Source: a virus
Taxonomy: Duplodnaviria; Caudoviricetes
Strand: one strand, 5' to 3'
Length of the DNA: 64,000 nt
IMG/VR virus record: IMGVR_UViG_2847060657_000007
Span: 20,959-84,958 of that record
The notes under the pieces were generated by a model that ran no database searches, was not told the DNA's origin, and saw only the letters and a program-made list of their open reading frames with translations. Shown here piece after piece: positions 10,719-51,327 of the stretch. Positions within the stretch are counted from its first letter, which is position 1. Every line of letters begins with the position of its first letter. The position numbers and the translations under genes were made by a program.

Positions 10719-10804
10719 GGTACTATTTATGGAAAGTGCCCGAATTCGGACACTTTGGAGGCAACTTAAAGTTATGATTAGGGCAAGTGTGATTGCTTGG
10801 TTTT

Positions 10805-13461: not shown

Positions 13462-16314
13462 TTAATCATCAATGTACTCAAAAAATAACTCCACACTGTC
13501 CTTGCCCGCCACATATAATGTGCGGGTTTTGATTGGCTTAGGTTTGTCGTTAATAAGCTCTAGGCTTTCAGCCTGAACTGTAGTTACTATCATAGTTTCA
13601 CCACGAGCATTTGTTCTACCTTGAATTTTCCTATTATCACTGACATTTATCTGATACGGATAGTTCGCTAATGGTTTGTTGGTTCTGCTGGAGGTGATGA
13701 TATATTGACCAACAAATGGATGTCTAAGCTTGGGCACCTCATACCCCACATACTCACCCCCCTCCATCACCTTCTCATTACTCTTGACTTGAAACACCCC
13801 AGGTGTTGTGATAAACACGCCTTGTTCGTTCATTTTAAACTCAGAACCACAGATGTTGATGGATAATTGAGTGGGGCTTGTGATTTGGATTTTACCTTCT
13901 GTTGAGATAATCTCTATGTTGTCTTTGGCGATGTGTTTGATTTGACCATCTTGAGCTTGTAGTTCTATGTCGTCTTTGGCGGTGTAGTGCTTAATGCCTC
14001 CTGTTTGGACAAAGACTCTGATGCCGTTTTGGACGGTTAGGTTATATTTTGAGGTGGTGGCAAGGCTTAGGTCTTTGTTTGTGGTGATGGCAAGGTTGTT
14101 GTCGGTGGTGATGTGAATGTTTTGTTTGGCAGTCAGACTCATGCCCGCCAGTGAGGCAAGGGCAATATGTGGGTTTGATAGCTCTGGATGACTTAGGGTG
14201 TCATCTGAGTCGTCATCATGGTGATTGGCATGGTCTACACCCTCCCCTGTCATGCTTGTGTTAAGCTCATCTAAGGTGGGCATGAGCGTGTCATCCAAGG
14301 CTCGCTCTTCGCATTGTGCTTGGATGCTACTTTGTATGAGTGATGAGTGGGTGCTTGTGGCATTCTGTAGCTGAGCTGTGGTCTCTTTAATGTCTTTGAT
14401 GTGACTTGTGGCATGTGGCCTCCCATGCGTGGTAATCACCATGCCTTTATCTGCTCTTATCACCCCATGTCCATCAGTTCTTACCTCAAAGCCCTCGCCT
14501 CGGTATTCACCTCGTCCTTGGGGGGTGGTAAGACGTCTGATGTGTCCTAGGTTAATCTCGGTGTGTAGGTGGTCGGATTTTAGGTGGGTTTGGAGTTTGT
14601 CTTTAGTGTCATCCATGATGAGTTGGTTGGATTTGTCTCCCCCATACTCTTTGGAGCGGATGCCAGAGAGGACTTTTTCATGAGGGAGGGTGTATAGAGG
14701 CATGTTGTTTGGATTGGTCAAAGAGCCTGCCACATAGGGCATGTCAGGATTGCCTCCAAAGAAGTCAATGATGACCTCTTGGCCTGCTCTGGGCAGTGCA
14801 ATGTGCCCATAGTGATCTCCTGCCCAGGTACTGGCAACACGAAGATAGCAGGTGTTTATCTGACTTAGGTCATCTTTGTCATCACCGGTGCGATTGTCTA
14901 CAAGGTGTCTTTGGGCGAGTGTGGGTTTGTCCCAGTGGAACTTAACTTTGATGCGACCGTATTGGTCGGTGTGTATCTCTTCACCTTCTTGGGCGACGAC
15001 AGTGGCGGTTTGGGTGCGGGCAGGGGGTCTTGGGCAGGGGGTTGTGGGTACAAGCGGATGTGTGGCAGGGTATGCAGTAAAGCTTGTATCAGCGGTGTAG
15101 TACTGATGGGTGTTGTTGTCTTCATCGATGGGTTTGATGCTCATCTGTAAGGCGTAGACGACCCAGTCGGTATTCATGCTTTGATGAGGGTGACCTGTTA
15201 GGGTAAATAAGTGGGCAACCTGTATGCCCTTTAGTCTGCCATGTGCGGTGGCACTTAGGCTTTGATGCCGATAAGCGGCGGTGAGCTGTTCGTTTTTTGT
15301 GGCTAGCTCATCACCCCCTGCTCGTCTGCCTTGATGCCATTCATAGCGTTGTAGGTGATGGATGAGTGCTTGATGTGGTTTGTGTGTGTCAGTTTGCACC
15401 CCTTTTATGGTATCATGAGCCATTAGGGGTTCATTAGGGGCTTTAAACTGATAATCAGATAAGAGACTTTGGGCACAGGTCAGTCTGCTTTTGGGGGTAA
15501 AGTGTTCTAGGTATTCAGCATACGCTGGCATACGCTGATTGGGCAGGTTGAGTGTTAGGGTGTCATAAAAGGGATTGGCGTGTCTTTTTAGGTGACTGAC
15601 ATGGTCGGTGATGATTAGGGTGTGATTGTCTTTGGTGTGTTCAAAGTAAAAGCTGATGCCATGCTCACTCATAAGGCGAGTGATGAATGCGTGGTCTGAT
15701 TCGTCATATTGGGTTTGGTAGTCTTGTTTAGGATAGTCATGGGTGAGTTCAAACTGCCAAGGATAAGGGTAGCAGGATAACACCTCTTCGATGATTTGTG
15801 GGATGGATTTGTGTTGGTGGATGTGATAGTTATTTGTTTTGGTGAGTAGGTAAGTCCATGGAGATAAGGTGAGTTCATAGACGGCATGCCTGTTGTGTGT
15901 GGTGAGTTTGGCACAGCCGGTGATGATGCCATGTCTTGTGACTTGTCCTGTGATGGTCCTATCATCGATGGGGTGTTTGTCATTTAAGTCAAGGGATATG
16001 CCTAAGGGCGTGCCGATGAGGGCGGTTAGGTCTAAGTGAGAGGCGACGCTTTGGTAGGAGATGGTGTCTTGGTGGGGGGTAGCCTCTTTGGGGTGGATGA
16101 TACTGCCATGATAAGCTTCAAAACTGACATAACCTTCTAGTCCCTCTATACCATGGGCAGGGTTGCCATGTTCGTCTTTGGCTTTGACGATGAGTTTGTA
16201 TTCAAACAGTCCGTTGATACTCTCTACCCCTTGTAAGCTGTCGAACCATAGATAAGGAGTGCCAGATACACTTTTGGGCAGATAAACAGAGTGTAGATGA
16301 GCACGATGGTTCAT
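13462..16314 (-). CDS. vgrG: Type VI secretion spike VgrG, copy 3
   Basis: Identical core, third distinct tip. Confidence 0.95.
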   Translation of the reverse strand: MNHRAHLHSVYLPKSVSGTPYLWFDSLQGVESINGLFEYKLIVKAKDEHGNPAHGIEGLEGYVSFEAYHGSIIHPKEATPHQDTISYQSVASHLDLTALIGTPLGISLDLNDKHPIDDRTITGQVTRHGIITGCAKLTTHNRHAVYELTLSPWTYLLTKTNNYHIHQHKSIPQIIEEVLSCYPYPWQFELTHDYPKQDYQTQYDESDHAFITRLMSEHGISFYFEHTKDNHTLIITDHVSHLKRHANPFYDTLTLNLPNQRMPAYAEYLEHFTPKSRLTCAQSLLSDYQFKAPNEPLMAHDTIKGVQTDTHKPHQALIHHLQRYEWHQGRRAGGDELATKNEQLTAAYRHQSLSATAHGRLKGIQVAHLFTLTGHPHQSMNTDWVVYALQMSIKPIDEDNNTHQYYTADTSFTAYPATHPLVPTTPCPRPPARTQTATVVAQEGEEIHTDQYGRIKVKFHWDKPTLAQRHLVDNRTGDDKDDLSQINTCYLRVASTWAGDHYGHIALPRAGQEVIIDFFGGNPDMPYVAGSLTNPNNMPLYTLPHEKVLSGIRSKEYGGDKSNQLIMDDTKDKLQTHLKSDHLHTEINLGHIRRLTTPQGRGEYRGEGFEVRTDGHGVIRADKGMVITTHGRPHATSHIKDIKETTAQLQNATSTHSSLIQSSIQAQCEERALDDTLMPTLDELNTSMTGEGVDHANHHDDDSDDTLSHPELSNPHIALASLAGMSLTAKQNIHITTDNNLAITTNKDLSLATTSKYNLTVQNGIRVFVQTGGIKHYTAKDDIELQAQDGQIKHIAKDNIEIISTEGKIQITSPTQLSINICGSEFKMNEQGVFITTPGVFQVKSNEKVMEGGEYVGYEVPKLRHPFVGQYIITSSRTNKPLANYPYQINVSDNRKIQGRTNARGETMIVTTVQAESLELINDKPKPIKTRTLYVAGKDSVELFFEYIDD

Positions 16315-16459
16315 GGGGGTATCTCCTTATGGGCAAGATGTCATGTGTGTGATGTGTGTGGTATATATTTCTGGGCTGTGTTGAACAGGCATGCAGGGTT
16401 AATGAGAATGATTTAGGAGTGATTGGATTTTAGCATGGGGGGTGGGAGGGGTCAAGGGG
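13753..16459. repeat. 2.7-kb promoter+vgrG core repeat, copy 3
   Basis: Direct sequence match to copy 1. Confidence 0.95.
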
Positions 16460-18602: not shown

Positions 18603-19503
18603 TGTAAAATAAACCCCCGTTATTTACAGTATTAAGGTAAAATACTGCAAATGAACATACACAAAAACACAAGACTGCTTCCCCACCATAGGAAAGCCAT
18701 TTGAACTGCTTACCATAAGAACAAGCAATCAGTGACTTCACTGGCACTCGAGTACAAAGTATCAAGACCTACCATTTACAAGGTCTTAAAACTTGCTCGC
18801 ATTAAACTCCTTAAGCCTCAAACCAGTACCAATAATCGCTTTAAACAAGCCAAGTATGGCATTAAACGCTTGGCTAAGGTTGAAAAATCCATTCAAGACA
18901 AACTCAAAAGGCAAGCCAAGCGATACAACAAGTCCTATTTTGGTGAGATGGTTCATGTAGATGCCAAACGCTTACCTTTACTTAAAGGACAAAGTACAAA
19001 CAGTCCTAGAGAATATCTGTTTGTTGCCGTAGATGACTATTCTTGTGAACTGTATGCTGCCATACTGCCTGACAAAACAGCCTTTGGTGCAGCACAGTTT
19101 CTGGTAGAGCAAGTGATAGAACCTTGTCCTTACCAAATTGATGTTATTTACTCTGACAATGGCACTGAATTTAAAGGCACAACACAGCATGAATTTGTCA
19201 AAGTATGTTATGATAACCACATCAACCAAAAATTTACCAAAGTAGGCAGACCACAAACCAATGGCAAAGCTGAACAGGAGATACGAACATTGATGGAGCT
19301 TTGGCATCATCAACATGAGTTTGTCAGCAGTGAACATAGAAAGCAAGAATTAACCAGATTTCTTAATTTCTATAACACTGTTAGACCACATTCATCTTTA
19401 ACCAAAAAAGATGAGATTACAGGAAAAACTTTGACTTTTACGCCTTATGAATGGTTAGAGTTTTATTTTAAACAAAGTGTAAATAACGGGTGAGGTTTTT
19501 ACA
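18603..19503 (+). mobile_element. IS481-family element with inactivated transposase
   Basis: Imperfect 26-bp IRs TGTAAAATAAACCCCCGTTATTTACA / TGTAAAAACCTCACCCGTTATTTACA; ORF MNIHKNTRL from 18651 has an in-frame TGA at 18702-18704; DDE/rve motifs. Confidence 0.9.
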
Positions 19504-23389: not shown

Positions 23390-24022
23390 ATGAAATACTT
23401 TATCGCCACTTTATTTGTCTTTATCCATACAACCGCTTTTTCAGCACCGCCTTATCAGTCCGCCGAACATTATCATGCTGGAACTTGTGATTTTTATAGC
23501 ACGCTCATTTTTCCGCGGACACCGCCTTATATTGGTATACCCCTTGATAGAAATGTAAATCTTATTCCTTATCAAGAATTTATGGAGCGTCTAGAACCTG
23601 TTTTAGGTCAATATATAGACCCAAGAAGCCGTTGGGCTGAGAGTGAGGGTTTGCAACAATTTTTGGCTTTAAAGGATTTTGGTAGTGAATTGTATCTTTT
23701 TAAGAAAAACAAAAATATTTATAAAATCAGCTATATTACATCAAATACTATAGATATTGAAAATCAAAATCTGAGCAATTCTGACAAAATGATGATTTTG
23801 GATACAATTAATATTTTTGTTCAAGACCACCAAAAATCCCAAGAAATATTAGACGAACTCTATAAAAGATATTTGGGACAGTTAGAGCTTGTTGTTGATG
23901 GATATATCTCTGTTTTTTTAGAGCATGATGGGAAGTATTTTTCTATGAAAGGTTATAATATAAATTACCATCCGATAGAAAGATGTAACTATAAAATTAT
24001 TCACTCAATTAGTATCGAATGA
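23390..24022 (+). CDS. Immunity paralogue 3
   Basis: Same leader and motif; divergent central region. Confidence 0.75.
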   Translation: MKYFIATLFVFIHTTAFSAPPYQSAEHYHAGTCDFYSTLIFPRTPPYIGIPLDRNVNLIPYQEFMERLEPVLGQYIDPRSRWAESEGLQQFLALKDFGSELYLFKKNKNIYKISYITSNTIDIENQNLSNSDKMMILDTINIFVQDHQKSQEILDELYKRYLGQLELVVDGYISVFLEHDGKYFSMKGYNINYHPIERCNYKIIHSISIE

Positions 24023-28395: not shown

Positions 28396-29464
28396 CTTGA
28401 ATTATCAAACCAACTGCAACACTTCATCAAAATAAACCTCATAAGGTGTTTTCCAGTTTAAACACTTTTTGGGTCTATGATTGGGTTCATTTACTTTACT
28501 GATAATATCGCTTTCATGCCACTTGCTTAAATCTTGATGCTTAGGGAAATATTCTCTAAGCAGTCCATTGGTATTTTCATTGCTTCCCCTATCCCAAGGG
28601 TGTCTTGGTGGGGGAAAGTAAAACTCTACATTTAACTGCTGACTGATTTTTTCATGATAAGCAAACTCTTTGCCTCTATCAGGGGTAATTGTATGGACTT
28701 TTACATCCTTTAATAAATCAATCATTGCAGTTTGTACATGTTCTGCCCTCTTGGCAGGTAATCTTCTGCACCACAGATAACGGCTTTTTCTATCTACTAA
28801 GGTGAGTAGACAATGACCACCAGAGATACCTAAGACAGTATCCACCTCTATGTCACCTGTCCGCTCTCTTAAATCAGCCATCTTTGGACGTTCTGATAAT
28901 TCATGACTGATCTTAATTTTACCACGCTTTTCATCATGAGTCTTAGCATGTCTTGTCTTACCTTTATGGCGTAGCTTACGACGTGCCAATCTGCCACCTT
29001 CATCAAACCATCCATGATAAATGGCTCGATAAATTGTATTGGCACTTATTTGGTGTTTTGTATTCTCAAGCCTAAGACGATTGCTGATTTGCTCTGGAGA
29101 CCACCTGTGACTCATAAACTTATCATGCACCAACTGATATAACTCTTTGTCATCTAATTTAAACTTAAGTTTGCATGCTTGACGTTTTTTATCATAGTTT
29201 ATCTGAGCCGTGTTAGCGCTATACGCTTGGTTTAACTTACAATTTCTTGATATTTCTCTTGAAATTGTTGAGCAAGAACGTCCTAACATGCTTGCGATTT
29301 TACTGGGCTTTATGCCTTGTGCAAGCATTAACATTATCTTTTCTCGTTCATTTATGCTAAGATGTTTGTAGGTGTTCATGGTTACTTTTTTATTTGTGTG
29401 GTAACAATATTATCAGTAATGATGAACATCTTTTCATTTGTTGCGGTTGGATTGTATGTTTAAG
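28396..29464 (-). mobile_element. IS30-family element, transposase apparently intact (28405-29379)
   Basis: IRs CTTGAATTATCAAACCAACTGCAACA / CTTAAACATACAATCCAACCGCAACA; HTH, ITPDRGKEF, RGSNENTNGLLREYFPK. Confidence 0.92.
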
Positions 29465-29467
29465 GGT

Positions 29468-29499
29468 TAATACTGTAAATAACGGGGGTTTATTTTACA
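29468..29499 (-). mobile_element. Isolated left end of the same IS481 element, inverted
   Basis: Reverse complement TGTAAAATAAACCCCCGTTATTTACAGTATTAA is identical to 18603 onward; cut off by IS30. Confidence 0.9.
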
Positions 29500-29884
29500 C
29501 ATAGTCTTCTAAATATTTTTGATAAAACTTATCAAACATCTGCTCAGATTTTTGTTTATCATCGGTAATGATGTTAAGTAAAGTGACAACCTTTTGGCGT
29601 TCCCCATCGTAAATATAGGGGGTATATTTTTCTAGGCTGTCCCGATATTGGACGGAAAAAAATAATATTCCATTCTAACAAGCCTATCGGAACAAGCATC
29701 AAATCCTTTGCTAGCCTTTTTTCATTATTTACCAAATCTTGTGCATGATATTTTTCAACACGCTCAAAAAAGCTTCTCTATTTTCAAACAATGCTCTGCC
29801 CTTATAACACTCTGGTGGGCCTGCAAATGCCACATTAAAACACAGTGCCATAAGTGGTATGATAAACAGTTTAAGATATCTCAT
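29500..29884 (-). pseudogene. Frameshifted, IS481-truncated immunity paralogue
   Basis: MRYLKLFIIPLMALCFNVAFAGPP; one extra base in the A6 run at 29766-29771 opens the frame through KVVTLLNIITDDKQKSEQMFDKFYQKYL. Confidence 0.7.
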
Positions 29885-29961
29885 TTGGCTACTCCGATGG
29901 ATTTGGTTAAATTGATGTCGTTGTGTATTTTAGTCCATTGCTATTTAAAGAGTGAGCATAA

Positions 29962-30558
29962 TCATCGCTCTGACCTCCTTCTAATATCAATCCAATAAAT
30001 TCCAGTATTGACATCTTTATCATGCCCCTGTAATCTACCGTGAAAATTAATAATAATATCGTCATAAATATATTGGGAGCCAATATAGCACCAATAGTCA
30101 TAACATTCTTGCTTGGTTTGACTTAAAAAATCACGATATAGTTTATAAAAAATAGCCTCAGCCTCTTTCTCGTTATCGGTAGCAATCTTAATTAAGGTAA
30201 TAACTCTGTCTTTTTCAAAATCAAATATTAGATGCTCCTCAGGGTCTTTATCATAAAACAATGAAAACTCCTGCGGAATACGACCGCCACTATTTACCAC
30301 CTTTGAGTGTTCAAAATATCCAAGAAAAAAGTATCGTAGCCCAACACTAAAAGGGATATCAGGTGACACATAATGCTCATCAAAATAATAATTTGAACCG
30401 CTTATTAAGCCATATTCAATAAAATTTTTATCATCATATTTTTCAATGCGTTCTACAAGCTCCAAATCAGTTAAAAATATAGGGAGATAACGACCAGCGT
30501 AACTTATTTGTGAATAAACACAAAACGCAAAAATACATAATAAATGGGTGAATTTCAT
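29962..30558 (-). CDS. Signal-peptide immunity protein, distant member of the same family
   Basis: MKFTHLLCIFAF leader; RVITLIKIATDNEKEAEAIFYKLY; follows the effector fragment. Confidence 0.65.
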   Translation of the reverse strand: MKFTHLLCIFAFCVYSQISYAGRYLPIFLTDLELVERIEKYDDKNFIEYGLISGSNYYFDEHYVSPDIPFSVGLRYFFLGYFEHSKVVNSGGRIPQEFSLFYDKDPEEHLIFDFEKDRVITLIKIATDNEKEAEAIFYKLYRDFLSQTKQECYDYWCYIGSQYIYDDIIINFHGRLQGHDKDVNTGIYWIDIRRRSER

Positions 30559-30562
30559 AAAG

Positions 30563-31014
30563 TTACTTCCATTCAAGGTTGTTGTCATTGTTCATAATAT
30601 CCCAATGATGTTTAAAAAGAGACCATTGAGTGCCTTTATGTAAATTACCATCGCCATTTTTGGTATGTTCATAGTCCATGATGCTGTCAGTATAACCTTG
30701 TGAGAAGATTAATCCTACCTCATCTTCAAAAGTATGCGATAACCCAAAACTATGCCCCAGTTCGTGAATGAGTGTATGAGTATCACTTTGATTAAATAGC
30801 ACACAGACATTTCCCCAATGATTGCATACTCTGTCTGTATGACAAGCGTTGTAACCATCGGTTACTTCATGCTTTTGAGCAATCCCTGCCAATTGACTAT
30901 CAAATCCAGCAATGGCATAATCACTAAATATAAGATGTGTATGTTTTTGATAATTTTTGCTATCAGCATATTCTTTTATTCCTGATAGTAATAATCTGTG
31001 CAACCCAACCAAGT
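30563..31014 (-). pseudogene. C-terminal fragment of a metallopeptidase effector
   Basis: THLIFSD...HELGHSFGLSHTF...QGYTDSIMDYE...SLFKHHW aligns with the 20177-21973 C-terminus; 5' end cut at an IS30 end. Confidence 0.75.
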
Positions 31015-32874
31015 CTTGCATTATACCCACCAAACCCCAAAATAACACTTCAAACCTTCTTCGATTGTATCAAACTCTGACAAATGACTTCTAAGTCATC
31101 TCTTAATCGTTGCCCAAGTTTGCTCTATTGGGTTTAGCTTGGGTGAGTAAGGTGGTAGTGGTAAGATGATGTGTTTGTATGGTATGTTATTGATAAGCTC
31201 TTGCAAGTGTTTCATTCTGTGAAATCTTGCATTGTCTAAGATGATGATACAAGGCTTGCCTGTTTGTTTGGTGTGATTGTTAAGACAAGGCAGTAGCATT
31301 TGTTCAAACCACGTTTCAAACAAAGCACTTGTCATTGTATTGTTGTAGATGAGTGGAGCAATCAGGTTTTTGGCTTTGCCCCCTATTTGTCCTGCCACTA
31401 AGGAGACTCGTTGATAGCGTCTGCCACTGACTTTATCATAGGCTCTTTGACCTTTTAGGCTTCTTGCATGAGTACGGTGCAAGTAAGTATCAATGCCTGT
31501 CTCATCTATATAGACAAGCTCGTAACCTTGTTTGGACGTAGCTTGTAGTTGTGTTAATTTGTCTTGGAAGTCTTTGACTTTGTTTGGGTCTTGCTCTTTG
31601 TGGGTTGTGGTCTTTTTTTAAGAGTAATGTTCATTGCTTTGAGTGCTTTATGGATTGCCATATCACTACACCCAAATACTTCACCAATTTCACGTAGGTA
31701 TTTGTCAGGATTTGCTTCTACCTAAGCAAGAAGCTCTTTTCTGTCAAACTTTCTGGGTCTGTTGGTGGGTTTTTTACAAGACAAATTGCCTGTTTCTTTA
31801 AGTTGTCGTCTCCAACGAAACACGGTGTGTCTTGATACACCAAAAGCTTCTATAACAAGGTCAATGTTCTTGCATTTGTCATCATAAGCCAAGGCTTTTT
31901 GTCTGATTTCTAGTGAATAAGCCATATAAGTAGTGATTGGTGAATGGTGATGGAGATATGGGGATAATTGGTGTTGTTTTAAGGTTTGTTGGTTATACAA
32001 CCCAACCGCAACACCAAATAACATAAAGAAGCGTTCATCAATTTAATGTATTATTAAGTCACCACACAAAATAAAGCATTAAAGAGCATGAACACTTCTT
32101 ACAAACATCTTAGCATAGATGAGCGTGAAAAGATAATGGTTTTGTTATCTTTGGGTAAATCTATGGGTATAATTGCCAAACAATTAAACAGAGCCAAGTC
32201 CACCATTTGCCGTGAAATCAAGAGAAATGGCGGTGTTGACAATTATTTGGCAATCAAAGCAACTTGTCTTTACCAAACAAGAAGACAAGCCTGTCGCCCG
32301 AGCTTAAAGCTCACCAATCCGTATGTATTTAACTTGGTACAAGACAAGCTATTTAACCATCAATGGTCGCCTGAGCAAATACAGCATCGCTTAGCCCTTG
32401 AAGGTAGCCAAATAACGGTGAGTTATGCAATCATCTATCGGGGTTTGTATCAAGGCTTGTTTTGTTACTTTGGTAGATAGATGTAGTCGTTTTTTAATTT
32501 GCACAACCGTCAAAGCCAAAAAAGCAACCTTGGTCAGTCAAGCCATCATCAATGCCTTAGTGAATCAGCCTGTGCATACAATCACACCAGATAGAGGGAA
32601 AGAATTTGCCAAACATCGAAAAATAACAGACCACTTAAAAGCAACCATCCACTTTCCACCACCAAGACAGCCTTGGCAAAGAGGAAGCAATGAAAACACC
32701 AATGGGTTATTAACAGAATATTTCCCCAAAGGGTCTGATATTAACCAGTGGGACAATCAATACATACAAACAAAGGTCGCCAAACTCAATCTGCGACCTA
32801 GAAAATGTTTAAATTGGCGAACACCTTATGAGGTCTATTATCAAAAGGTGTTGCAGTTAGTTTGATGATTCAAG
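31015..32874 (+). mobile_element. Second IS30-family element: internal deletion, IS630 inserted in its left IR
   Basis: ORF pieces 32088-32480 and 32425-32865 lack the central segment; right IR ends ...GATGATTCAAG; left IR reconstitutes as CTTGCAT-TA-CAACCCAACCGCAACA. Confidence 0.8.
31022..31997 (-). mobile_element. IS630-family element, pseudogenised
   Basis: MAYSLEIRQKAL start; IILDNARFH and LPPYSPKLNPIE; premature stops; IRs TATACCCACCAAACC / TATAACCAACAAACC with TA at both ends. Confidence 0.85.
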
Positions 32875-33308: not shown

Positions 33309-34217
33309 TCAATCCAAAATCTCTAAACATGCCAAGCCTTCCAGCATAAAGTTAATATACTTTTTGGTTTGGTTGAGTGCTGGCTTATGAGCCATAATAA
33401 AGACTTGATGTGGTTTTTTACTAACCAACTTTCTGATATTTTCTATGCTAAACCTGGTTAGTTCTGTCCTTTCAATCAATTCCTTTGAAATAAATATTGT
33501 TGGTCTTATGGCACATCCAGCACTTTCTTTGAGACTTAACAAATCCTTATCACTCAATGTATCGGCAAATCTAATAAGAAAATCGCCACTGTTTATCTCG
33601 TTTATCCAAGCCTTGCCATAATAAATACGCCAGCAATCATCTTCAAGCTCTGATAAATCTTGCCCTGCTATTTCAATAAAAATGTCTTGTAAACCCTTTC
33701 TTTCTTGAAAGGGTATTGGCAAGGTCAAAAGATAGTTCTCTTGATTTAAAAAAGCAGACACAATAACAGACAGTCTTTGTCTGCTATTTACTTTTCTTTT
33801 GTGGGTGTTATTATTCTGTTTTGGGCTGTGTCTTTTGATTGATTGCAAAGAGTTACGGTCTAAGTCATCATCGTACTGCTTTTTTGGTGCTGGTTCTGTT
33901 AGGTCAAATAGGATTTCACCACTTTGCACATTTTGATAATGACTGTCATTATCTGATTGGTTACGGGTAATCTTGGCAAGGTTTTCTTGTCTGCCTAACT
34001 TGCAATCAATCTTGTGATTTTCTACTGAGCGAAAGTGTGGCTCTACTTTGCGTTCGTTTTTAGGTTTGGATAGATTGACACAAGTTACCGCTATGCCACA
34101 CAAAGGGCAAGTAAAATTCTTTTGGCTTGCAATCTTGCCAGCCTGATACGCAATATCAGCGTCTTTGGGATTGATGACTTTTTGTAAATCCAATGAGTAG
34201 GCGTTAGGTAAGGTCAT
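33309..34217 (-). CDS. Hypothetical protein with N-terminal CoiA-like zinc finger
   Basis: 302-aa ORF; FTCPLCG...PHF...H...C pattern. Confidence 0.6.
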   Translation of the reverse strand: MTLPNAYSLDLQKVINPKDADIAYQAGKIASQKNFTCPLCGIAVTCVNLSKPKNERKVEPHFRSVENHKIDCKLGRQENLAKITRNQSDNDSHYQNVQSGEILFDLTEPAPKKQYDDDLDRNSLQSIKRHSPKQNNNTHKRKVNSRQRLSVIVSAFLNQENYLLTLPIPFQERKGLQDIFIEIAGQDLSELEDDCWRIYYGKAWINEINSGDFLIRFADTLSDKDLLSLKESAGCAIRPTIFISKELIERTELTRFSIENIRKLVSKKPHQVFIMAHKPALNQTKKYINFMLEGLACLEILD

Positions 34218-34303: not shown

Positions 34304-35209
34304 AAAAGTGCCGATGTCGACACATTTGAAAATATTGGACAAAAGCGACGATGTCGTCGTTTTATCTCTGTTTTTGGATTAATTCAATAAGGTAATGCTG
34401 GCATTGCTTTTGACCATCGTTAGCTTTTAAATGTGCCACTGGCGGTACATTTAAGACTGGTAGCGGTTATCACTTCTATAAATTACCCGACGTCGGGTAA
34501 TTTAGAAAATGAAACAGTCTTTCAAATGTCCCGCTGGCGGGACATTTGAAACAGCGTTTTAAAAAAATCAGATAAGAACAATAATTACATAAAATGGACG
34601 CCAGCGTCCATTTTAAACATTTAAAATAGCGGTCAAAAATGGTCATAACCGCCTTCATTAGCATTGTTGAGAGTTGAACCAACATTCAATAAAAAAAGAG
34701 TATAATAAAGCTTGTCTTTTATGTTTGCAGACATCTGCGAAACAGTCATCAAAATTATCAACCAATAGCAAAAATCCCGACATCGGGATTTTTGGGTAAA
34801 AGTGACGCCAGCGTCATATTTGAAATGTTAGAAAAGTTCCGCCAGTGGGATTTTTATAAATCGGACGATGTCGTCCGTTTTGATAAAATGCTGAGCAAAA
34901 GCGACGCTGGCGTCGTTTTTATAAGTGGTTTGATTTTTGAAACGCTGTTTCAAAGGTAACGACATCGTTACCTTTGAAAGGCTATTTCATTTTGACGTTA
35001 GCCTCTTAAAATGCACGCTGTCGTGCATTTTGGACAATCTTTTAAATCGGAAAACGTTTTCCGATTTGCCAATAAAAAACCGCCCCAAAGCCTTAAACAT
35101 CAAGGCTTTGGGGCGGTAGCGAGAACGCTTAAATGAAACCAACCGTTGCACTTGTTGGCGGATGTATTATAGCCCAAAATGGGGAAAAGCGAAAACGGTT
35201 TTCGCTTTT
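34304..35209. repeat. Array of ~17 fixed-geometry 24-bp palindromes (AAA-N5-CGMYRKCG-N5'-TTT)
   Basis: Units at 34304, 34341, 34388, 34429, 34480, 34524, 34591, 34721, 34770, 34798, 34832, 34858, 34897, 34952, 35008, 35044, 35185; arms differ but stay self-complementary; no long ORF. Confidence 0.92.
35074..35117 (-). terminator. Intrinsic terminator (16-bp stem)
   Basis: AAAAA-ACCGCCCCAAAGCCTT-loop-AAGGCTTTGGGGCGGT; U-tract on the minus strand. Confidence 0.75.
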
Positions 35210-35265: not shown

Positions 35266-35294
35266 TTGACAATGTCCCATAAAATTAGCATAAT
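35266..35294 (+). promoter_or_regulatory. sigma70 promoter
   Basis: TTGACA-17 bp-CATAAT. Confidence 0.75.
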
Positions 35295-35451
35295 GATTGT
35301 GTTACTGCAAAATCAGTAGCCAGCCGTGAGAAGCTGAGTATTAACAACAGGCTAGCAAGCCGTATTTGTCATTATCGCAGTCTACAATGATTGCTTTATG
35401 TAATGATAAGCGGTTTTTTGTTTGCACCCCTTTTATACCTTTTCTTTTTAT

Positions 35452-35530
35452 GGTGGATAAGGGGCAAGGCGGGCTTATGCTCGGCTGGTGTCTGTTGTGC
35501 CAGTTTCTCACCCTTGTCCTTTATCCATCG
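35452..35530 (+). ncRNA. C4/CI-like phage antisense RNA
   Basis: 18-bp closing stem GGTGGATAAGGGGCAAGG/CCTTGTCCTTTATCCATC with two internal hairpins; TTCTCAC is complementary to the upstream hairpin loop CAGC-CGTGAGAA-GCTG (35321-35336). Confidence 0.7.
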
Positions 35531-35588
35531 CCCTATACGTGAGAAATATAGAGCGGTATTTTACGATACAACAGAAAAGGTAATCCCT

Positions 35589-35861
35589 ATGACCACTTCC
35601 AATCATTCCCATTCTGGCAATCCTAATTTTAATAGCACCAGTCAACACCCCATCAGACCAAAGCCAAGCTGTGTTTGGCAAAATGGGCAATGGCTACTTA
35701 ACGACGAAGCCTACAATCACCTTTTGAATGTGCGTGATACTTTGCTTGCATTTAGTAGCTATGCTCGTATCAATAACGATAAATGCAGTGATGCCCTATT
35801 AAACACTTTGGGTATGCTATCGGACATGATGACCAGCACCCTAGAAGCCCAAGAGTCCTAG
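35589..35861 (+). CDS. Small Icd/Ash-like protein downstream of the C4-like RNA
   Basis: ATG 35589 after GAAAAGG; position is typical of c4-icd/ash operons; no sequence motif recognised. Confidence 0.45.
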   Translation: MTTSNHSHSGNPNFNSTSQHPIRPKPSCVWQNGQWLLNDEAYNHLLNVRDTLLAFSSYARINNDKCSDALLNTLGMLSDMMTSTLEAQES

Positions 35862-35886
35862 TCAATATCGTTGCAATCCTTTGATT

Positions 35887-36057: not shown

Positions 36058-36405
36058 ATGAGCAAAATCAATGCACAAGATGAACAGCAGTACGAAATGG
36101 TGATGGCAATCTCAGAATTTTTAAAAAATGAGAAGCTAGTCGCCAATGATTGTGATGGTGTGGCAATGCGATTGTATGAATGCCTGCAAAAGGTTTTTGG
36201 TGGTTGCAACATCTATTTTAAAAAAGGTGTTGTTGGGCAGGCGGACGAAGAAGGTCGGCAAATGCTGATAGACCAAGACAGAGGGCTTAGTATTCATCAA
36301 ATTGCCCAAAAATATCAAAAGACCTGTCAATCCGTCTATAAAAAACTCTCAAAGGCACGAGCAGAAAGACGCAAGCAAAATAATGAAAACTTTGGAGCTT
36401 TATAA
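36058..36405 (+). CDS. Mor/C-family transcription activator
   Basis: VFGGCNIYF and C-terminal HTH GLSIHQIAQKYQKTCQSVYKKL. Confidence 0.75.
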   Translation: MSKINAQDEQQYEMVMAISEFLKNEKLVANDCDGVAMRLYECLQKVFGGCNIYFKKGVVGQADEEGRQMLIDQDRGLSIHQIAQKYQKTCQSVYKKLSKARAERRKQNNENFGAL

Positions 36406-36416
36406 GGTGGCAAACA

Positions 36417-37127
36417 ATGAATAACTTAGAAGTAAAACGCTTTCAAATTTCAAGAACGGGCGTGCATACAGACAGTAACGGCAATGAACATACTTTTTCT
36501 GATACGCTATTTAATAAACTGGTAACACGATTTAATCAACTGGCAAATCATGGTAATCAACAAACACCCTTATATCTTGAACATCCCCAAAGCAAAGCTG
36601 ATAATGACCCAACACGCCATCAAAGCTATGGTTATGTGTCTAGCCTTGAATTGGATAATGGGCGATTGTATGCGGTGGCGTGGGTTAATCGTGAGCTTAT
36701 CAATTTGGTAAAAAGTGGGCAATATAAGGCGGTATCAGCTGGCTTTATGAAAGTGGGTGATGATTTGTGGCTAGACCATGTCGCTTTTGTCAAAAGACCT
36801 GCGGTAAAAGGCATGGAAGTGCTTAGTTTTTCAGAGCATTCTTTTGTGCAAAACTGTGTAACAGCATTGGTAAATACCCATAATTTTAATGCTGGCAATA
36901 CCATTCATGAAAATGCTTTGTCGTGGATGAATGCTTTTAATACTGATTATGAAACAGCAGTTATTTCGGTGATGCGTGAGCAAGCAAATACTGCTAATTT
37001 TTCAAAAAGAAACAGCAATAACCAATCCTATCAGTTGCACCAAAAAGCGTTAGCTTACCAAGCCCAATACGGCGTAAGTTATGAAGTGGCGGTGCGTGAA
37101 TGTTTAAAACAAGGGGCTACTCTATGA
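36417..37127 (+). CDS. Mu gpI-like prohead protease/scaffold homologue
   Basis: Aligns by eye with 53999-55150 (TG.HTDSNG, HP, SL..DNG.LYA, K.VSA.F, PA.KG.E). Confidence 0.75.
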   Translation: MNNLEVKRFQISRTGVHTDSNGNEHTFSDTLFNKLVTRFNQLANHGNQQTPLYLEHPQSKADNDPTRHQSYGYVSSLELDNGRLYAVAWVNRELINLVKSGQYKAVSAGFMKVGDDLWLDHVAFVKRPAVKGMEVLSFSEHSFVQNCVTALVNTHNFNAGNTIHENALSWMNAFNTDYETAVISVMREQANTANFSKRNSNNQSYQLHQKALAYQAQYGVSYEVAVRECLKQGATL

Positions 37128-37753
37128 GCAAATCAACCATTAAAAATGATATTGCTAAAATTAAAAACGAAATTCAAAAATGGCACGATGAATTAAAGCA
37201 GTTGAATCAAGAAAAATCAAGCTATGAAATGCAAATCAAAGAACTTGAAATGATGCCTGTAAACCGTGCGGATTTTGGTGTATTGCTGAAAGAATCTATT
37301 GCACAAGAAGCAAATAACTACACCAAAAACATTGCTCAAAGCCTATTGCAACCTGAATTTTCTGATAAAGAAATGCAAGAAAAGCACAATGGATTTAAGG
37401 CAATGAATGAAAGAAGTCTTAAAGACTTTGAGTGGTGCAAGAATAATCAAAGATTTGAATGGTTGTTTAATGCTTTTCGTAGCCATAAAAACATAATCAC
37501 ACCAAGCAATAGCACAGAAACAAGGCAAATGTTATGTTGGTTAATACCTGATGTGGTGTATGAAAAAACCATGCACATTATCAATACCGAAATAGGCGAC
37601 GAATGGGGGAATGATGATTTACCAAGCATTAGTGAAAGATATGAACTAATTTTATCATTAAAGGAGAAAATTAGTTCATGCCAAAATCGGATTGATGAAT
37701 TACAAGGGGTTATTGATGAGATGAGTTCAATAACAATTAAGCCTGAAATTTAA
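37124..37753 (+). CDS. Hypothetical coiled-coil protein
   Basis: ATGA overlap with the upstream gene; heptad-rich N- and C-termini. Confidence 0.65.
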   Translation: MSKSTIKNDIAKIKNEIQKWHDELKQLNQEKSSYEMQIKELEMMPVNRADFGVLLKESIAQEANNYTKNIAQSLLQPEFSDKEMQEKHNGFKAMNERSLKDFEWCKNNQRFEWLFNAFRSHKNIITPSNSTETRQMLCWLIPDVVYEKTMHIINTEIGDEWGNDDLPSISERYELILSLKEKISSCQNRIDELQGVIDEMSSITIKPEI

Positions 37754-50703: not shown

Positions 50704-51327
50704 TTAAAGGTTGGCAAAATCAAGACTAATCTGCTGATATTTACCGTGTTCATCTCGTTCATAAAACCGCATATATTCTTTTGATGAGATGACTTGGGTG
50801 GCGTCTGAGATAGCCGTCATTGCTTTTTGCCATTTGTCATCAACGATATTTAAGCTACGCAGGGATAGTACTCGGCGGATGTTAATTTTGCCTTCTTTGT
50901 CCACGGCAAAGGCGTTATCAATAATGGCTTTGATGTTGTCGTTGCTGTCGGCTGTCCACTCACGCAGACATTCGTCAATGAGTGATTTGGCAACTTGCAG
51001 GCGTTCGTCAAAGACTAGGTTATCTTGAATGGCAATTTGTACTTTGTATTTGCCGTCAAAGCTCATTAGGGTAACATTGCCCTTTTTACCGCCAATTTGG
51101 GTATCGTACTCTTGGGCGGAGAGTTCCACAAAATTGTGAAATTCACCAAATACCTGCCCTTTGATTGACCGCATTTGGATTTGTAGGCTGATGGCTTGCC
51201 CCACAAGTTTTTTGACGGTTTCGTCTCTTAGTTTGTCAATTTCTTTAATCTTATCCACAGGGATAAGGTGTCCCTTGTCATTCAGGCGGTAGCCTTCGGG
51301 GACGGTTACAGGGGTATGGGTAGTCAT
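50704..51327 (-). CDS. DUF3164 family protein
   Basis: GGKKGNVTLMSFDG, FDERLQVAKSLIDECL. Confidence 0.88.
   Translation of the reverse strand: MTTHTPVTVPEGYRLNDKGHLIPVDKIKEIDKLRDETVKKLVGQAISLQIQMRSIKGQVFGEFHNFVELSAQEYDTQIGGKKGNVTLMSFDGKYKVQIAIQDNLVFDERLQVAKSLIDECLREWTADSNDNIKAIIDNAFAVDKEGKINIRRVLSLRSLNIVDDKWQKAMTAISDATQVISSKEYMRFYERDEHGKYQQISLDFANL

Follow-up and report, generated by a model that had tools for sequence, protein, structure and literature searches.

Genomic context of the array

The window, by which we mean the whole 64,000-nucleotide stretch of viral DNA analysed here, contains a non-coding array of about 17 short palindromes at 34304-35209. This array lies directly upstream of the sigma-70-type promoter (35266-35294) of a C4-controlled operon in a satellite-like island. 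On its left is a divergently oriented 302-aa gene, with IS30/IS630 debris further left of that gene. The features are listed below in window coordinates.

33309..34217, minus strand: 302-aa gene, Zn-ribbon plus OB-like C-terminal domain, divergent from the operon and left of the array
34304..35067, no strand: main body of the array, 16 units; orthologous arrays in loci L001, L002, L006, L007 and L020
34768..34821, no strand: adjacent unit pair with arms AATCC and AGTGA, starts 28 bp apart; block homologue of a pair in Mu-like prophages
35075..35165, minus strand: candidate small RNA gene within the array interval (terminator scan; near-invariant in Moraxella orthologues)
35185..35209, no strand: last unit before the promoter, AAAAGCGAAAAC-G-GTTTTCGCTTTT, with AGCGA arms and an A/T core; conserved in orthologues
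35266..35294, plus strand: strong sigma-70-type promoter, TTGACA-17-CATAAT (11/12); invariant in orthologues
35288..35535, plus strand: leader and C4 antisense RNA (Rfam)
36058..37753, plus strand: downstream island operon of three genes (Pfam/PHROG)
36058-36405, plus strand: Mor-family activator (Pfam/PHROG)
36417-37127, plus strand: 236-aa Mu I-like protein, protease/scaffold-like (Pfam/PHROG)
37100-37753, plus strand: 217-aa coiled-coil protein (Pfam/PHROG)

The C4 antisense RNA (RF01695, 35446-35535) scores 59 bits, which is over the Rfam gathering score, and its target sites a1/b1 (35288-35340) score under it. A small ORF lies between the C4 antisense RNA and the Mor-family gene. The preliminary description linked the array to the adjacent satellite-like module and to phages, and both links hold. 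The same layout recurs in Moraxella and Neisseria-type loci.

The interval 34304-35209 is not made up of the array alone, as a candidate small-RNA gene also lies inside it. This candidate has a TATAAT box at approximately 35169-35174 (minus strand). Some 85 nt follow the box, and at their end is a strong intrinsic terminator (stem 35117-35079, then a T-run). The candidate RNA (35165-35075) belongs to no Rfam family. For the array itself, Rfam returned chance-level matches only and BLAST against phage records gave no match, and a tRNA search at the locus found none. In two metatranscriptomes, contigs span the 302-aa gene (with ends at 34192 and 34226) and 35498-35871. None covers the array, but contigs cannot show absence.

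The 302-aa protein had been suggested as a possible binder of the array. Its closest named relative is in M. haemolytica (84% identity), and homologues of about 50% identity are encoded just before cas1 in type I-C operons on Pasteurellaceae-like contigs. Others are encoded before an OLD-family ATPase-nuclease gene (Psychrobacter) or inside a type I R-M locus, and there are no units near the homologues in any of these cas, OLD-family or R-M loci. In the AlphaFold model (pLDDT 82), the N-terminal part is rich in Cys and His, and the C-terminal domain has no better than weak matches to OB folds (Foldseek E ~2e-3; VIA Z 5-6). The protein falls in no PADLOC or Pfam family, and a viral-contig search with it returned nothing. 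Since homologues occur in defence loci that lack arrays, and M. cuniculi has the array without the gene, the suggested role falls away. The gene looks like variable, defence-island-like cargo beside the array and outside the array system.

Anatomy of the units

The preliminary description reported about 17 palindromes here, and this is confirmed. The units share the frame AAA-N5-CG-(A/C)YR(G/T)-CG-N5'-TTT and are 24 bp long, often extended to 30 bp by TTCAAA/TTTGAA flanks. We define a strict unit as one that fits AAA-N5-CG-MYRK-CG-N5'-TTT with at least 4 of 5 arm pairs. Nine units are strict (starts at 34341, 34480, 34524, 34591, 34770, 34858, 34897, 34952 and 35008), and eight are looser or have a variant core (starts at 34304, 34388, 34429, 34723 (GCAGACATCTGC), 34798, 34832, 35044 and 35185). 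What sets these eight apart is a mismatch, an A/T core, or a TG...CA that replaces CG...CG in a compensated way.

Clustering of this kind is far beyond chance. The record is a virus-type contig of 85 kb from a Moraxella. It contains 25 perfect palindromes with arms of at least 8, 16 of which fall within the 1 kb of the array, and elsewhere in the contig there is almost no 24-mer in which 10 or more of the 11 pairs form. Only one similar unit (10733-10756) is found in the rest of the contig. The isolated units are predicted to form hairpins of approximately -11.5 to -13 kcal/mol as RNA and -7.7 kcal/mol as DNA, compared with -2.5 for control 28-mers. A simple terminator scan finds 15 terminator-like sites versus 2.8 expected.

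The gaps between units are irregular (1-120 bp) and ORF-free, and an ORF scan finds no ORF longer than 69 aa across 34304-35209. The array is indeed non-coding. Its description as AT-rich needs qualification: the GC content is 0.37-0.42, but this is like the surroundings, the whole region being AT-rich. The example units given earlier are also correct, as is the independent assortment of arms and cores, with AGCGA arms found with three cores and TCGGA and GGTAA arms with two each. One unit, AGTTC/GGATT, is chimeric, combining the arms of two neighbours.

The central dinucleotide

The central dinucleotides run TG x4, CG, TG, CA x5, TG x2, CA, TG, CG, exactly as first described. The centre was then taken to be directional. 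It is best read instead as the product of decay, on either strand, of a central CpG in what was probably once a perfect palindrome (ACGT or CCGG), because CG is commonly intact and orthologous units differ as CG, TG and CA. For example, M. haemolytica has CG where units in the window have TG or CA. Among the Neisseria arrays described below, the central CG is intact in 34 of 56 distinct units, compared with 2 of 29 Moraxella units, and in 21 of the 56 the palindrome is perfect over all 24 bp, the ACGT or CCGG centre included.

The stem CpGs are intact in 101/112 half-sites in Neisseria and 55/58 in Moraxella, and where they change, the change appears as a compensated TG...CA. Decay at the centre would fit relaxed constraint combined with a high C-to-T rate, whether by methylation or by exposure in a hairpin loop.

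Conservation among Moraxella loci

The island module and its array are present in the M. haemolytica chromosome (L001) and in bovine and other metagenome contigs (L002-L009), and M. cuniculi (L020) keeps the array with a shortened module and an IS in place of the 302-aa gene. The array abuts the C4 promoter in seven Moraxella loci. The promoter, the leader and the small-RNA candidate are almost invariant across these orthologues, and the DNA beside the array varies (302-aa gene, IS or HigBA). In L002 and L003 there are integrase fragments, several kb from the array.

The Moraxella arrays differ through the gain and loss of whole units, and gains, losses and replacements of whole units also separate close relatives and metagenome variants. 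Both arms can be replaced at one orthologous position, e.g., ATGCA/TGCAT versus ATGAC/GTCAT, and GGTAA versus TGTGA versus TGTCC is a further such series. Orthologue comparison had been proposed as a check for compensatory arm changes, and these are what it reveals: arms are exchanged in pairs and self-complementarity is kept. The centres vary as ATGT, ACAT, ACGG and CCGG, and at one orthologous position two arm types and two cores occur in all four combinations.

The motif is not spread at similar density through ordinary intergenic DNA. In the complete 2.1-Mb genome of M. haemolytica, all 11 pattern matches lie inside the orthologous array, and a reversed control pattern gives 1 match. Of 300 Moraxellaceae species genomes, 4 contain adjacent double units, and none matches the reversed control.

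Neisseria-type arrays and further lineages

A search of viral and metagenome collections with a two-unit DNA pattern yields further loci, about 10 of which contain the Neisseria uptake sequence GCCGTCTGAA and have arrays of 12-21 units each. All eight of the Neisseria-type arrays examined have a promoter directly downstream. At a distance of 300-450 bp past the array there is a C4 RNA, oriented away from the array; Rfam matches it in 7 of the 8, and in the remaining locus (L024) a C4-type leader and RNA can be read from the sequence. The operon proteins are only 29-40% identical to those of the window, and the L024 homologues include a weak Mu-like_Pro match. L024 also encodes a primase, whose gene is 6 kb from the array, and a Terminase_2 protein.

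Single units match at 88-92% over 24-32 bp between Moraxella and Neisseria, so the units are better conserved between the genera than the island proteins are. The arms are also shared: 6 of 10 Moraxella perfect-arm types are found again among 19 Neisseria types, versus 1.5 expected under a position-specific model (P ~0.001). An odd unit, GCAGACGTCTGC, is likewise common to arrays of both genera, and L024 has a chimeric unit of its own (ATGGA/TCGCA).

Two further loci extend the range. In L048, a third lineage with a GC of 0.32, three units lie just upstream of a promoter and sRNA-Xcc1. In L022 (GC 0.55), sRNA-Xcc1 is followed by an ORF that contains four units. Some pattern matches are unrelated: L038 is a giant-virus-like contig (TFIIB, VLTF3), and L037, L041, L043 and L045 contain other repeats.

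A unit pair in transposable prophages

The same unit occurs in B3/BcepMu-like transposable prophages of the same host families. In eight such loci, a winged-helix (wHTH) gene is separated from the DUF3102-transposase-ATPase genes by about 85 bp, and this gap is filled by two units, neither more nor fewer. The small winged-helix gene upstream of the pair encodes 97-98 aa and is the counterpart of BcepMu gp12 and B3 ORF14. The eight loci divide into a Moraxella-like clade and a clade of about 58% GC, some members of which have the Neisseria-type uptake sequence. Complete proviruses have no units besides the pair, except for one extra unit in G005 and the set in G306. In the type phages BcepMu, B3 and phiE255, the wHTH and DUF3102 genes are present, but the gap is about 10 bp and there are 0 units.

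Every island array has a block, an adjacent unit pair, with homology to the pair in phages of the same host. The two match at 91% over 58 bp (L053 versus L002) and at 88% in L001, and window positions 34768-34815 match the pair of L025/G004 at 87.5% over 48 bp. Similarly, units of the GC-rich phage clade match Neisseria array units at 96% over 28 bp. Arm AATCC is common to Moraxella phages and islands only, and ACGGT and ACGCT to the Neisseriaceae ones only. Besides the pair, we found no similarity of the array to the phage ends. The best explanation is that the island units are amplified and diversified copies of the two-unit element found at a gene junction of the phage early operon. A site common to a phage and to an island of the same host is what a helper-site mimic would have, with these prophages as its putative helpers.

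G306, a distant B3-like provirus of 68% GC, differs in placement. It has four identical units, three of them directly before a Mu gp27-like gene and the fourth at the following gene junction, i.e., beside the terminase genes and outside the early region. The three units lie 24 bp before the gp27 start, leaving no space for a new promoter. Taken together, the loci preserve the frame in genomes of 32% to 68% GC and, in Mu-like elements, always place it at a gene junction or upstream of a promoter.

The wHTH protein is the obvious first candidate binder, but at best it would read the frame and not the arms. Arm-specific recognition is unlikely because the arms of the pair within a single phage are unrelated (TGTGC and AATCC) and the wHTH proteins of the two clades are 65% identical although their unit arms differ. 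The protein encoded upstream in L063 has no similarity to the helper wHTH. L025, like the window, has a chimeric unit (AGTGC/GGATT).

Interpretation

Our preferred reading, to which we give a probability of roughly one in three, is that the array is a multi-copy mimic, at the DNA level, of a helper-phage site, through which a helper or host protein is bound or sensed. The array would be a cis-acting DNA element of the satellite-like island, made of 12-21 dyad units of the form (C)AAA-N5-CG-(A/C)CG(G/T)-CG-N5'-TTT(G). A dimeric protein of the helper phage or host would read the invariant frame, i.e., the A/T tracts on the outside together with two CpG steps spaced by 6 bp. Hairpins or cruciforms may also extrude transiently from the palindromes. 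A protein occupying many sites could then signal helper activity to the island, or the sites could titrate a factor away from the helper.

Several properties guide this reading. The dyad that runs through the centre, the frame that is independent of GC content, the position upstream of a promoter and the homology to the phages all suggest that a symmetric protein recognises the double-stranded DNA and that a parasitic element is mimicking a site. Symmetry acting at the level of DNA is the best explanation for the centre, as an RNA loop would not need to be ACGT or CCGG. The original proposal of a library of operator or decoy sites is strengthened by the phage pair and its homologous array block. 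Neither Mor nor the 33309 (302-aa) protein is retained as binder.

A homodimer that reads only the frame leaves the self-complementary N5 arms unexplained, because independent half-sites would match by chance in fewer than 1% of units, as calculated from position frequencies. Arms that are diversified yet self-complementary suggest, by contrast, a hairpin or cruciform, or else a mutational process that preserves palindromes (template switching or short conversion). Exchange of this kind does happen, as the chimeric units and the position with all four combinations show. A tentative extension of the helper-site reading, which we consider unlikely, is that the array is a catalogue of junction elements captured from different Mu-like phage lineages, its arm set defining which helpers are sensed or sabotaged. 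As such a catalogue, the array would be a diversified, structure-constrained recognition library that turns over by gain, loss and replacement of units, and it would then have no precedent.

The scattered junction positions (G306, the ORF of L022) fit punctuation or a mobile element as well as they fit a specific operator. For punctuation, each unit would work as an RNA or single-stranded DNA hairpin (a bidirectional attenuator, a stabilising hairpin or a roadblock at a gene junction), and the 17 stacked units would insulate the C4 operon or the cargo gene from outside transcription. Much of the anatomy agrees with this: the arms are self-complementary with compensated changes, the RNA hairpins are far more stable than controls, there are A-tract and T-tract flanks and an excess of terminator-like sites, and the phage units of L023, L053 and G306 always follow a stop codon and precede the start of the next gene. 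On the C4-sense strand, G.T pairs make up most of the mismatches (25 versus 4 A.C, or about 4 versus 1 independent events), and decay is much faster at the central CpG than at the stem CpGs, as it would be for unpaired loop cytosines. However, the 8 nt that follow the stem contain only about 3.5 T, mostly paired with the A-tract, and efficient termination in G306 would silence the terminase genes. Moreover, four units lie inside an ORF in L022, the island array is upstream of both flanking promoters, and a hairpin needs neither palindromic loops (ACGT, CCGG) nor a frame kept from 32% to 68% GC. We therefore consider punctuation somewhat unlikely. A mobile element, i.e., a self-propagating or recombination-prone palindrome family without dedicated function, would have spread by template switching or short-tract conversion at the junctions of Mu-like phages and their parasites and accumulated in the array at a module boundary or cargo hotspot. 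It would account for the different junctions used in different phage clades (and the units inside an ORF), the chimeric units of L025, L024 and the window, the turnover of whole units among close relatives and metagenome variants, the four arm/core combinations and the variable cargo beside the array (302-aa gene, IS, HigBA). Yet position and a similar array size (12-21 units) persist in two bacterial families even though identity between their island proteins has fallen to 29-40%, and the host chromosome has no further copies. The array also lacks a linked transposase or nuclease, and the frame and stem CpGs are clearly constrained. We consider this account quite unlikely.

Two functions raised in the preliminary description, an origin and a set of recombination sites, have less in their favour. 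An island replication origin or packaging (pac) site would suit repeated sites in AT-rich DNA beside a satellite-like module, the three G306 units directly upstream of a gp27-like (small terminase-like) gene, which is the classic pac/cosB position, and the primase and Terminase_2 genes of L024. The Moraxella island, however, has no initiator, primase or terminase, the L024 primase gene is 6 kb away from its array, and iterons and pac boxes are conserved in sequence where the arms here vary. Transposable phages carry the unit without an ori, and the units are 8-16 kb inside the provirus records; the pac site of Mu is near a genome end. We consider an origin or pac site very unlikely, and the origin proposal is not supported. 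The other proposal was of site-specific recombination or inversion sites, with the asymmetric central dinucleotide setting direction. The 8+8+8 geometry does resemble that of recombinase core sites, chimeric units look like crossover products, and loop orientation differs between orthologues. But many centres are CG, the TG and CA forms are single transitions from it, and their orientation is as expected from independent decay. The arms, which are the part a recombinase would bind, vary, and no recombinase is consistently linked, the integrase fragments of L002/L003 being several kb away. Directional recombination sites are thus the most improbable of these explanations, and a small part of the probability goes to none of them.

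No other non-coding feature of this candidate satellite family, found in the airway commensals and pathogens Moraxella and Neisseria, is as conspicuous as the array. What makes the array unusual is that dyad symmetry is conserved while the arms are diversified from a vocabulary common to two bacterial families, and that one 24-bp frame ties it directly to a short element in co-resident phages, the pair in the phage corresponding to the array in the island. To our knowledge, descriptions of satellites that depend on Mu-like transposable phages are lacking. The candidate family raises the question of how a satellite senses or exploits a helper that replicates by transposition, and if the catalogue reading is true, this family of satellites parasitising transposable phages would be new to science.

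Comparison with known systems

A literature search found no description of such palindrome arrays, there are none in Rfam, and the array stands outside the named repeat classes with which we compared it (REP, attC, CRISPR and iterons), in agreement with the preliminary description. Operator, terminator and REP models each leave part of the array unexplained.

REP/BIME elements and the Neisseria NIME/dRS3 elements are alike in being clustered, short, imperfect palindromes that are non-coding, hairpin-capable and found in both orientations. However, REP and dRS3 have hundreds of sites per genome and conserved arms, whereas the present units have a single locus, variable arms and a conserved core. 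The restriction to one locus per genome (11/11 matches in the array; 296/300 Moraxellaceae without a double unit), the variable arms and the absence of a GTAG head rule out REP/BIME, and the RAYT transposases that accompany REP/BIME are not found near the array. Integron attC sites also keep a self-complementary structure while their sequence varies, and they too are arrayed. They are ruled out by the absence of R'/R'' boxes (GTTRRRY), extrahelical bases, cassettes and IntI, and by unit size (24-30 bp, not 57-141 bp).

A CRISPR array does not fit units that are non-identical, irregularly spaced and present in both core orientations. Mimicry of CRISPR repeats (RNA anti-CRISPR) is rejected too: what the type I-C repeats of L014/L015 have in common with the array is a TTGAAAC-like tail in a few units, and nothing else. 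An iteron-type origin fails on arms that differ between units and on the missing initiator and primase of the Moraxella island, and tyrosine-recombinase core sites (dif/lox-like) on the variable arms, the decaying central CpG and the lack of a linked recombinase. The units do have stable stems, and some pass the simple terminator scan, but they would probably make poor intrinsic terminators, with roughly 3.5 T in the 8 nt past the stem that are mostly paired with the A-tract, and the unit positions in G306 argue against efficient termination.

Sites for modification enzymes and regulators can be found in individual units. For example, GCA(N8)TGC, which we take to be the NgoAV site, equals the ATGCA unit, and what are presumably the sites of ModM3 (ACATC), ModD1 (CCAGC) and NgoMIV (GCCGGC) fall within cores. 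Some arms resemble what we assume to be CRP and TyrR half-sites. Each of these fits single units only.

The Mor/C sites of phage Mu consist of two 5-bp inverted repeats with a G/C-rich spacer and an A/T-rich flank (PMC4390567). The present units have a similar inverted-repeat layout, and there are Mor-family genes in the island and the phages, but the spacer here is 8 bp, compared with 6 bp in Mor/C sites, and the arms vary. We find no excess of TAnnnT 29-34 bp from unit centres, which rejects Mor-dependent promoters. In a Mor/C-dependent promoter, the dyad is centred at about -43.5 and the -10 hexamer lies about 31 bp downstream. Mor had been named as a possible binder, and the promoter geometry does not support it.

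A better candidate for a Mor/C-type site in these phages is TTATC-N6-GATAAGGTG, found at window position 51251 and at 23455 in G004.

Operators of a helper repressor are also rejected: the c/ner intergenic region of L025 (3381-3517) has other palindromes and 0 CG-core units. The stoperators of cluster A mycobacteriophages are alike in that many copies of a short site lie in intergenic gaps of a phage operon. Stoperators, however, are asymmetric 13-bp repressor sites of one sequence, and the present units are diversified palindromes.

The Cox boxes of phage P2 are a precedent for our preferred reading. P2 Cox binds multiple boxes at the PLL promoter of its satellite P4, and satellites copy helper cos, pac or activator sites. 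The likeness is that several copies of a site also present in the helper phage sit at the promoter for the parasite's lytic genes, and that the helper copies adjoin a small winged-helix gene. Cox boxes differ in being 9-bp direct repeats of one sequence, whereas the present units are 24-30-bp palindromes with diversified arms, in 12-21 copies per ~1 kb. The putative helpers also differ, being transposable B3/BcepMu-like phages, and binding is here a proposal. The array is a conserved and previously undescribed signal, and the known kinds that stand behind it are clustered palindromic cis-elements and helper-site mimicry.

A 302-aa protein family in defence loci

Members of one protein family recur in defence loci, across L011-L017, and their representative in the window is the following gene.

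33309-34217, minus strand: 302-aa protein, Cys/His-rich and OB-like, with family members in L011-L017

Neither Pfam nor PADLOC holds a family for this protein. In type I-C operons, the family gene lies immediately upstream of cas1, and in one of these cases it adjoins a duplicated cas1 5' fragment. Elsewhere, it overlaps the 5' end of an OLD-family nuclease gene or, in a type I R-M locus, follows hsdR. The family is a candidate new accessory gene for defence or adaptation.

Small RNAs

One candidate small RNA lies within the array interval of the window.

35075-35165, minus strand: candidate ~85-nt small RNA, with a TATAAT box of its own and ending in a strong terminator

It is oriented away from the C4 promoter, and its sequence hardly varies among the orthologues from M. 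haemolytica, M. cuniculi and metagenomes. Rfam has no matching family, and no counterpart was noticed in L024, the sole Neisseria-type locus inspected by eye.

Two other unit-bearing loci, L048 and L022, carry a known RNA family where other loci have C4 RNA.

L048 4007-4091: Rfam sRNA-Xcc1
L022 2080-2167: Rfam sRNA-Xcc1

In both, the order is promoter, leader, sRNA-Xcc1 (~87 nt) and ORF. By description, sRNA-Xcc1 is integron-borne; its occurrence in the C4 position suggests that phage-related elements use it as a C4-like immunity RNA.

Array variation and units elsewhere

The array is polymorphic and is an assembly breakpoint, as seen at 34697-34897: Logan contigs from isolate run X5 break inside it, and the oral-metagenome variant X10 differs in two of its segments, where 68 letters stand in place of 73 and 142 in place of 124.

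G306, a B3-like transposable provirus with 68% GC, contains four identical units (AAATGCGCCGACGTCGGCGCATTT). Three of them lie just upstream of the Mu gp27-like gene, the fourth at the next gene junction.

G306 16237-16363 and 18929-18952: four units, flanking the terminase region on both sides

The loose search pattern is not by itself specific for units. For example, it also matched a hairpin pair between two genes in L038 (859-907), a giant-virus-like contig with TFIIB-like and VLTF3-like genes; this match has no relation to the Mu-like elements.

Away from the array, the window has a single unit-like palindrome, AAAGTGCCCGAATTCGGACACTTT (10733-10756), which is flanked by two large minus-strand ORFs of a repeated region and has arms similar to those of the unit at 34304. 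The interval to the left of the island is a decayed insertion hotspot.

28405-32865: IS30-family and IS630-family transposase genes and fragments, and a small M12-like metallopeptidase ORF

A candidate late promoter site

The motif TTATC-N6-GATAAGGTG is common to the window (51251) and the Moraxella-type Mu-like prophage G004 (23455). It consists of 5-bp inverted repeats around a 6-bp G/C-rich spacer, the same architecture as reported for Mor/C sites (PMC4390567), and we therefore consider it a candidate late promoter site of the Mu-like prophages.
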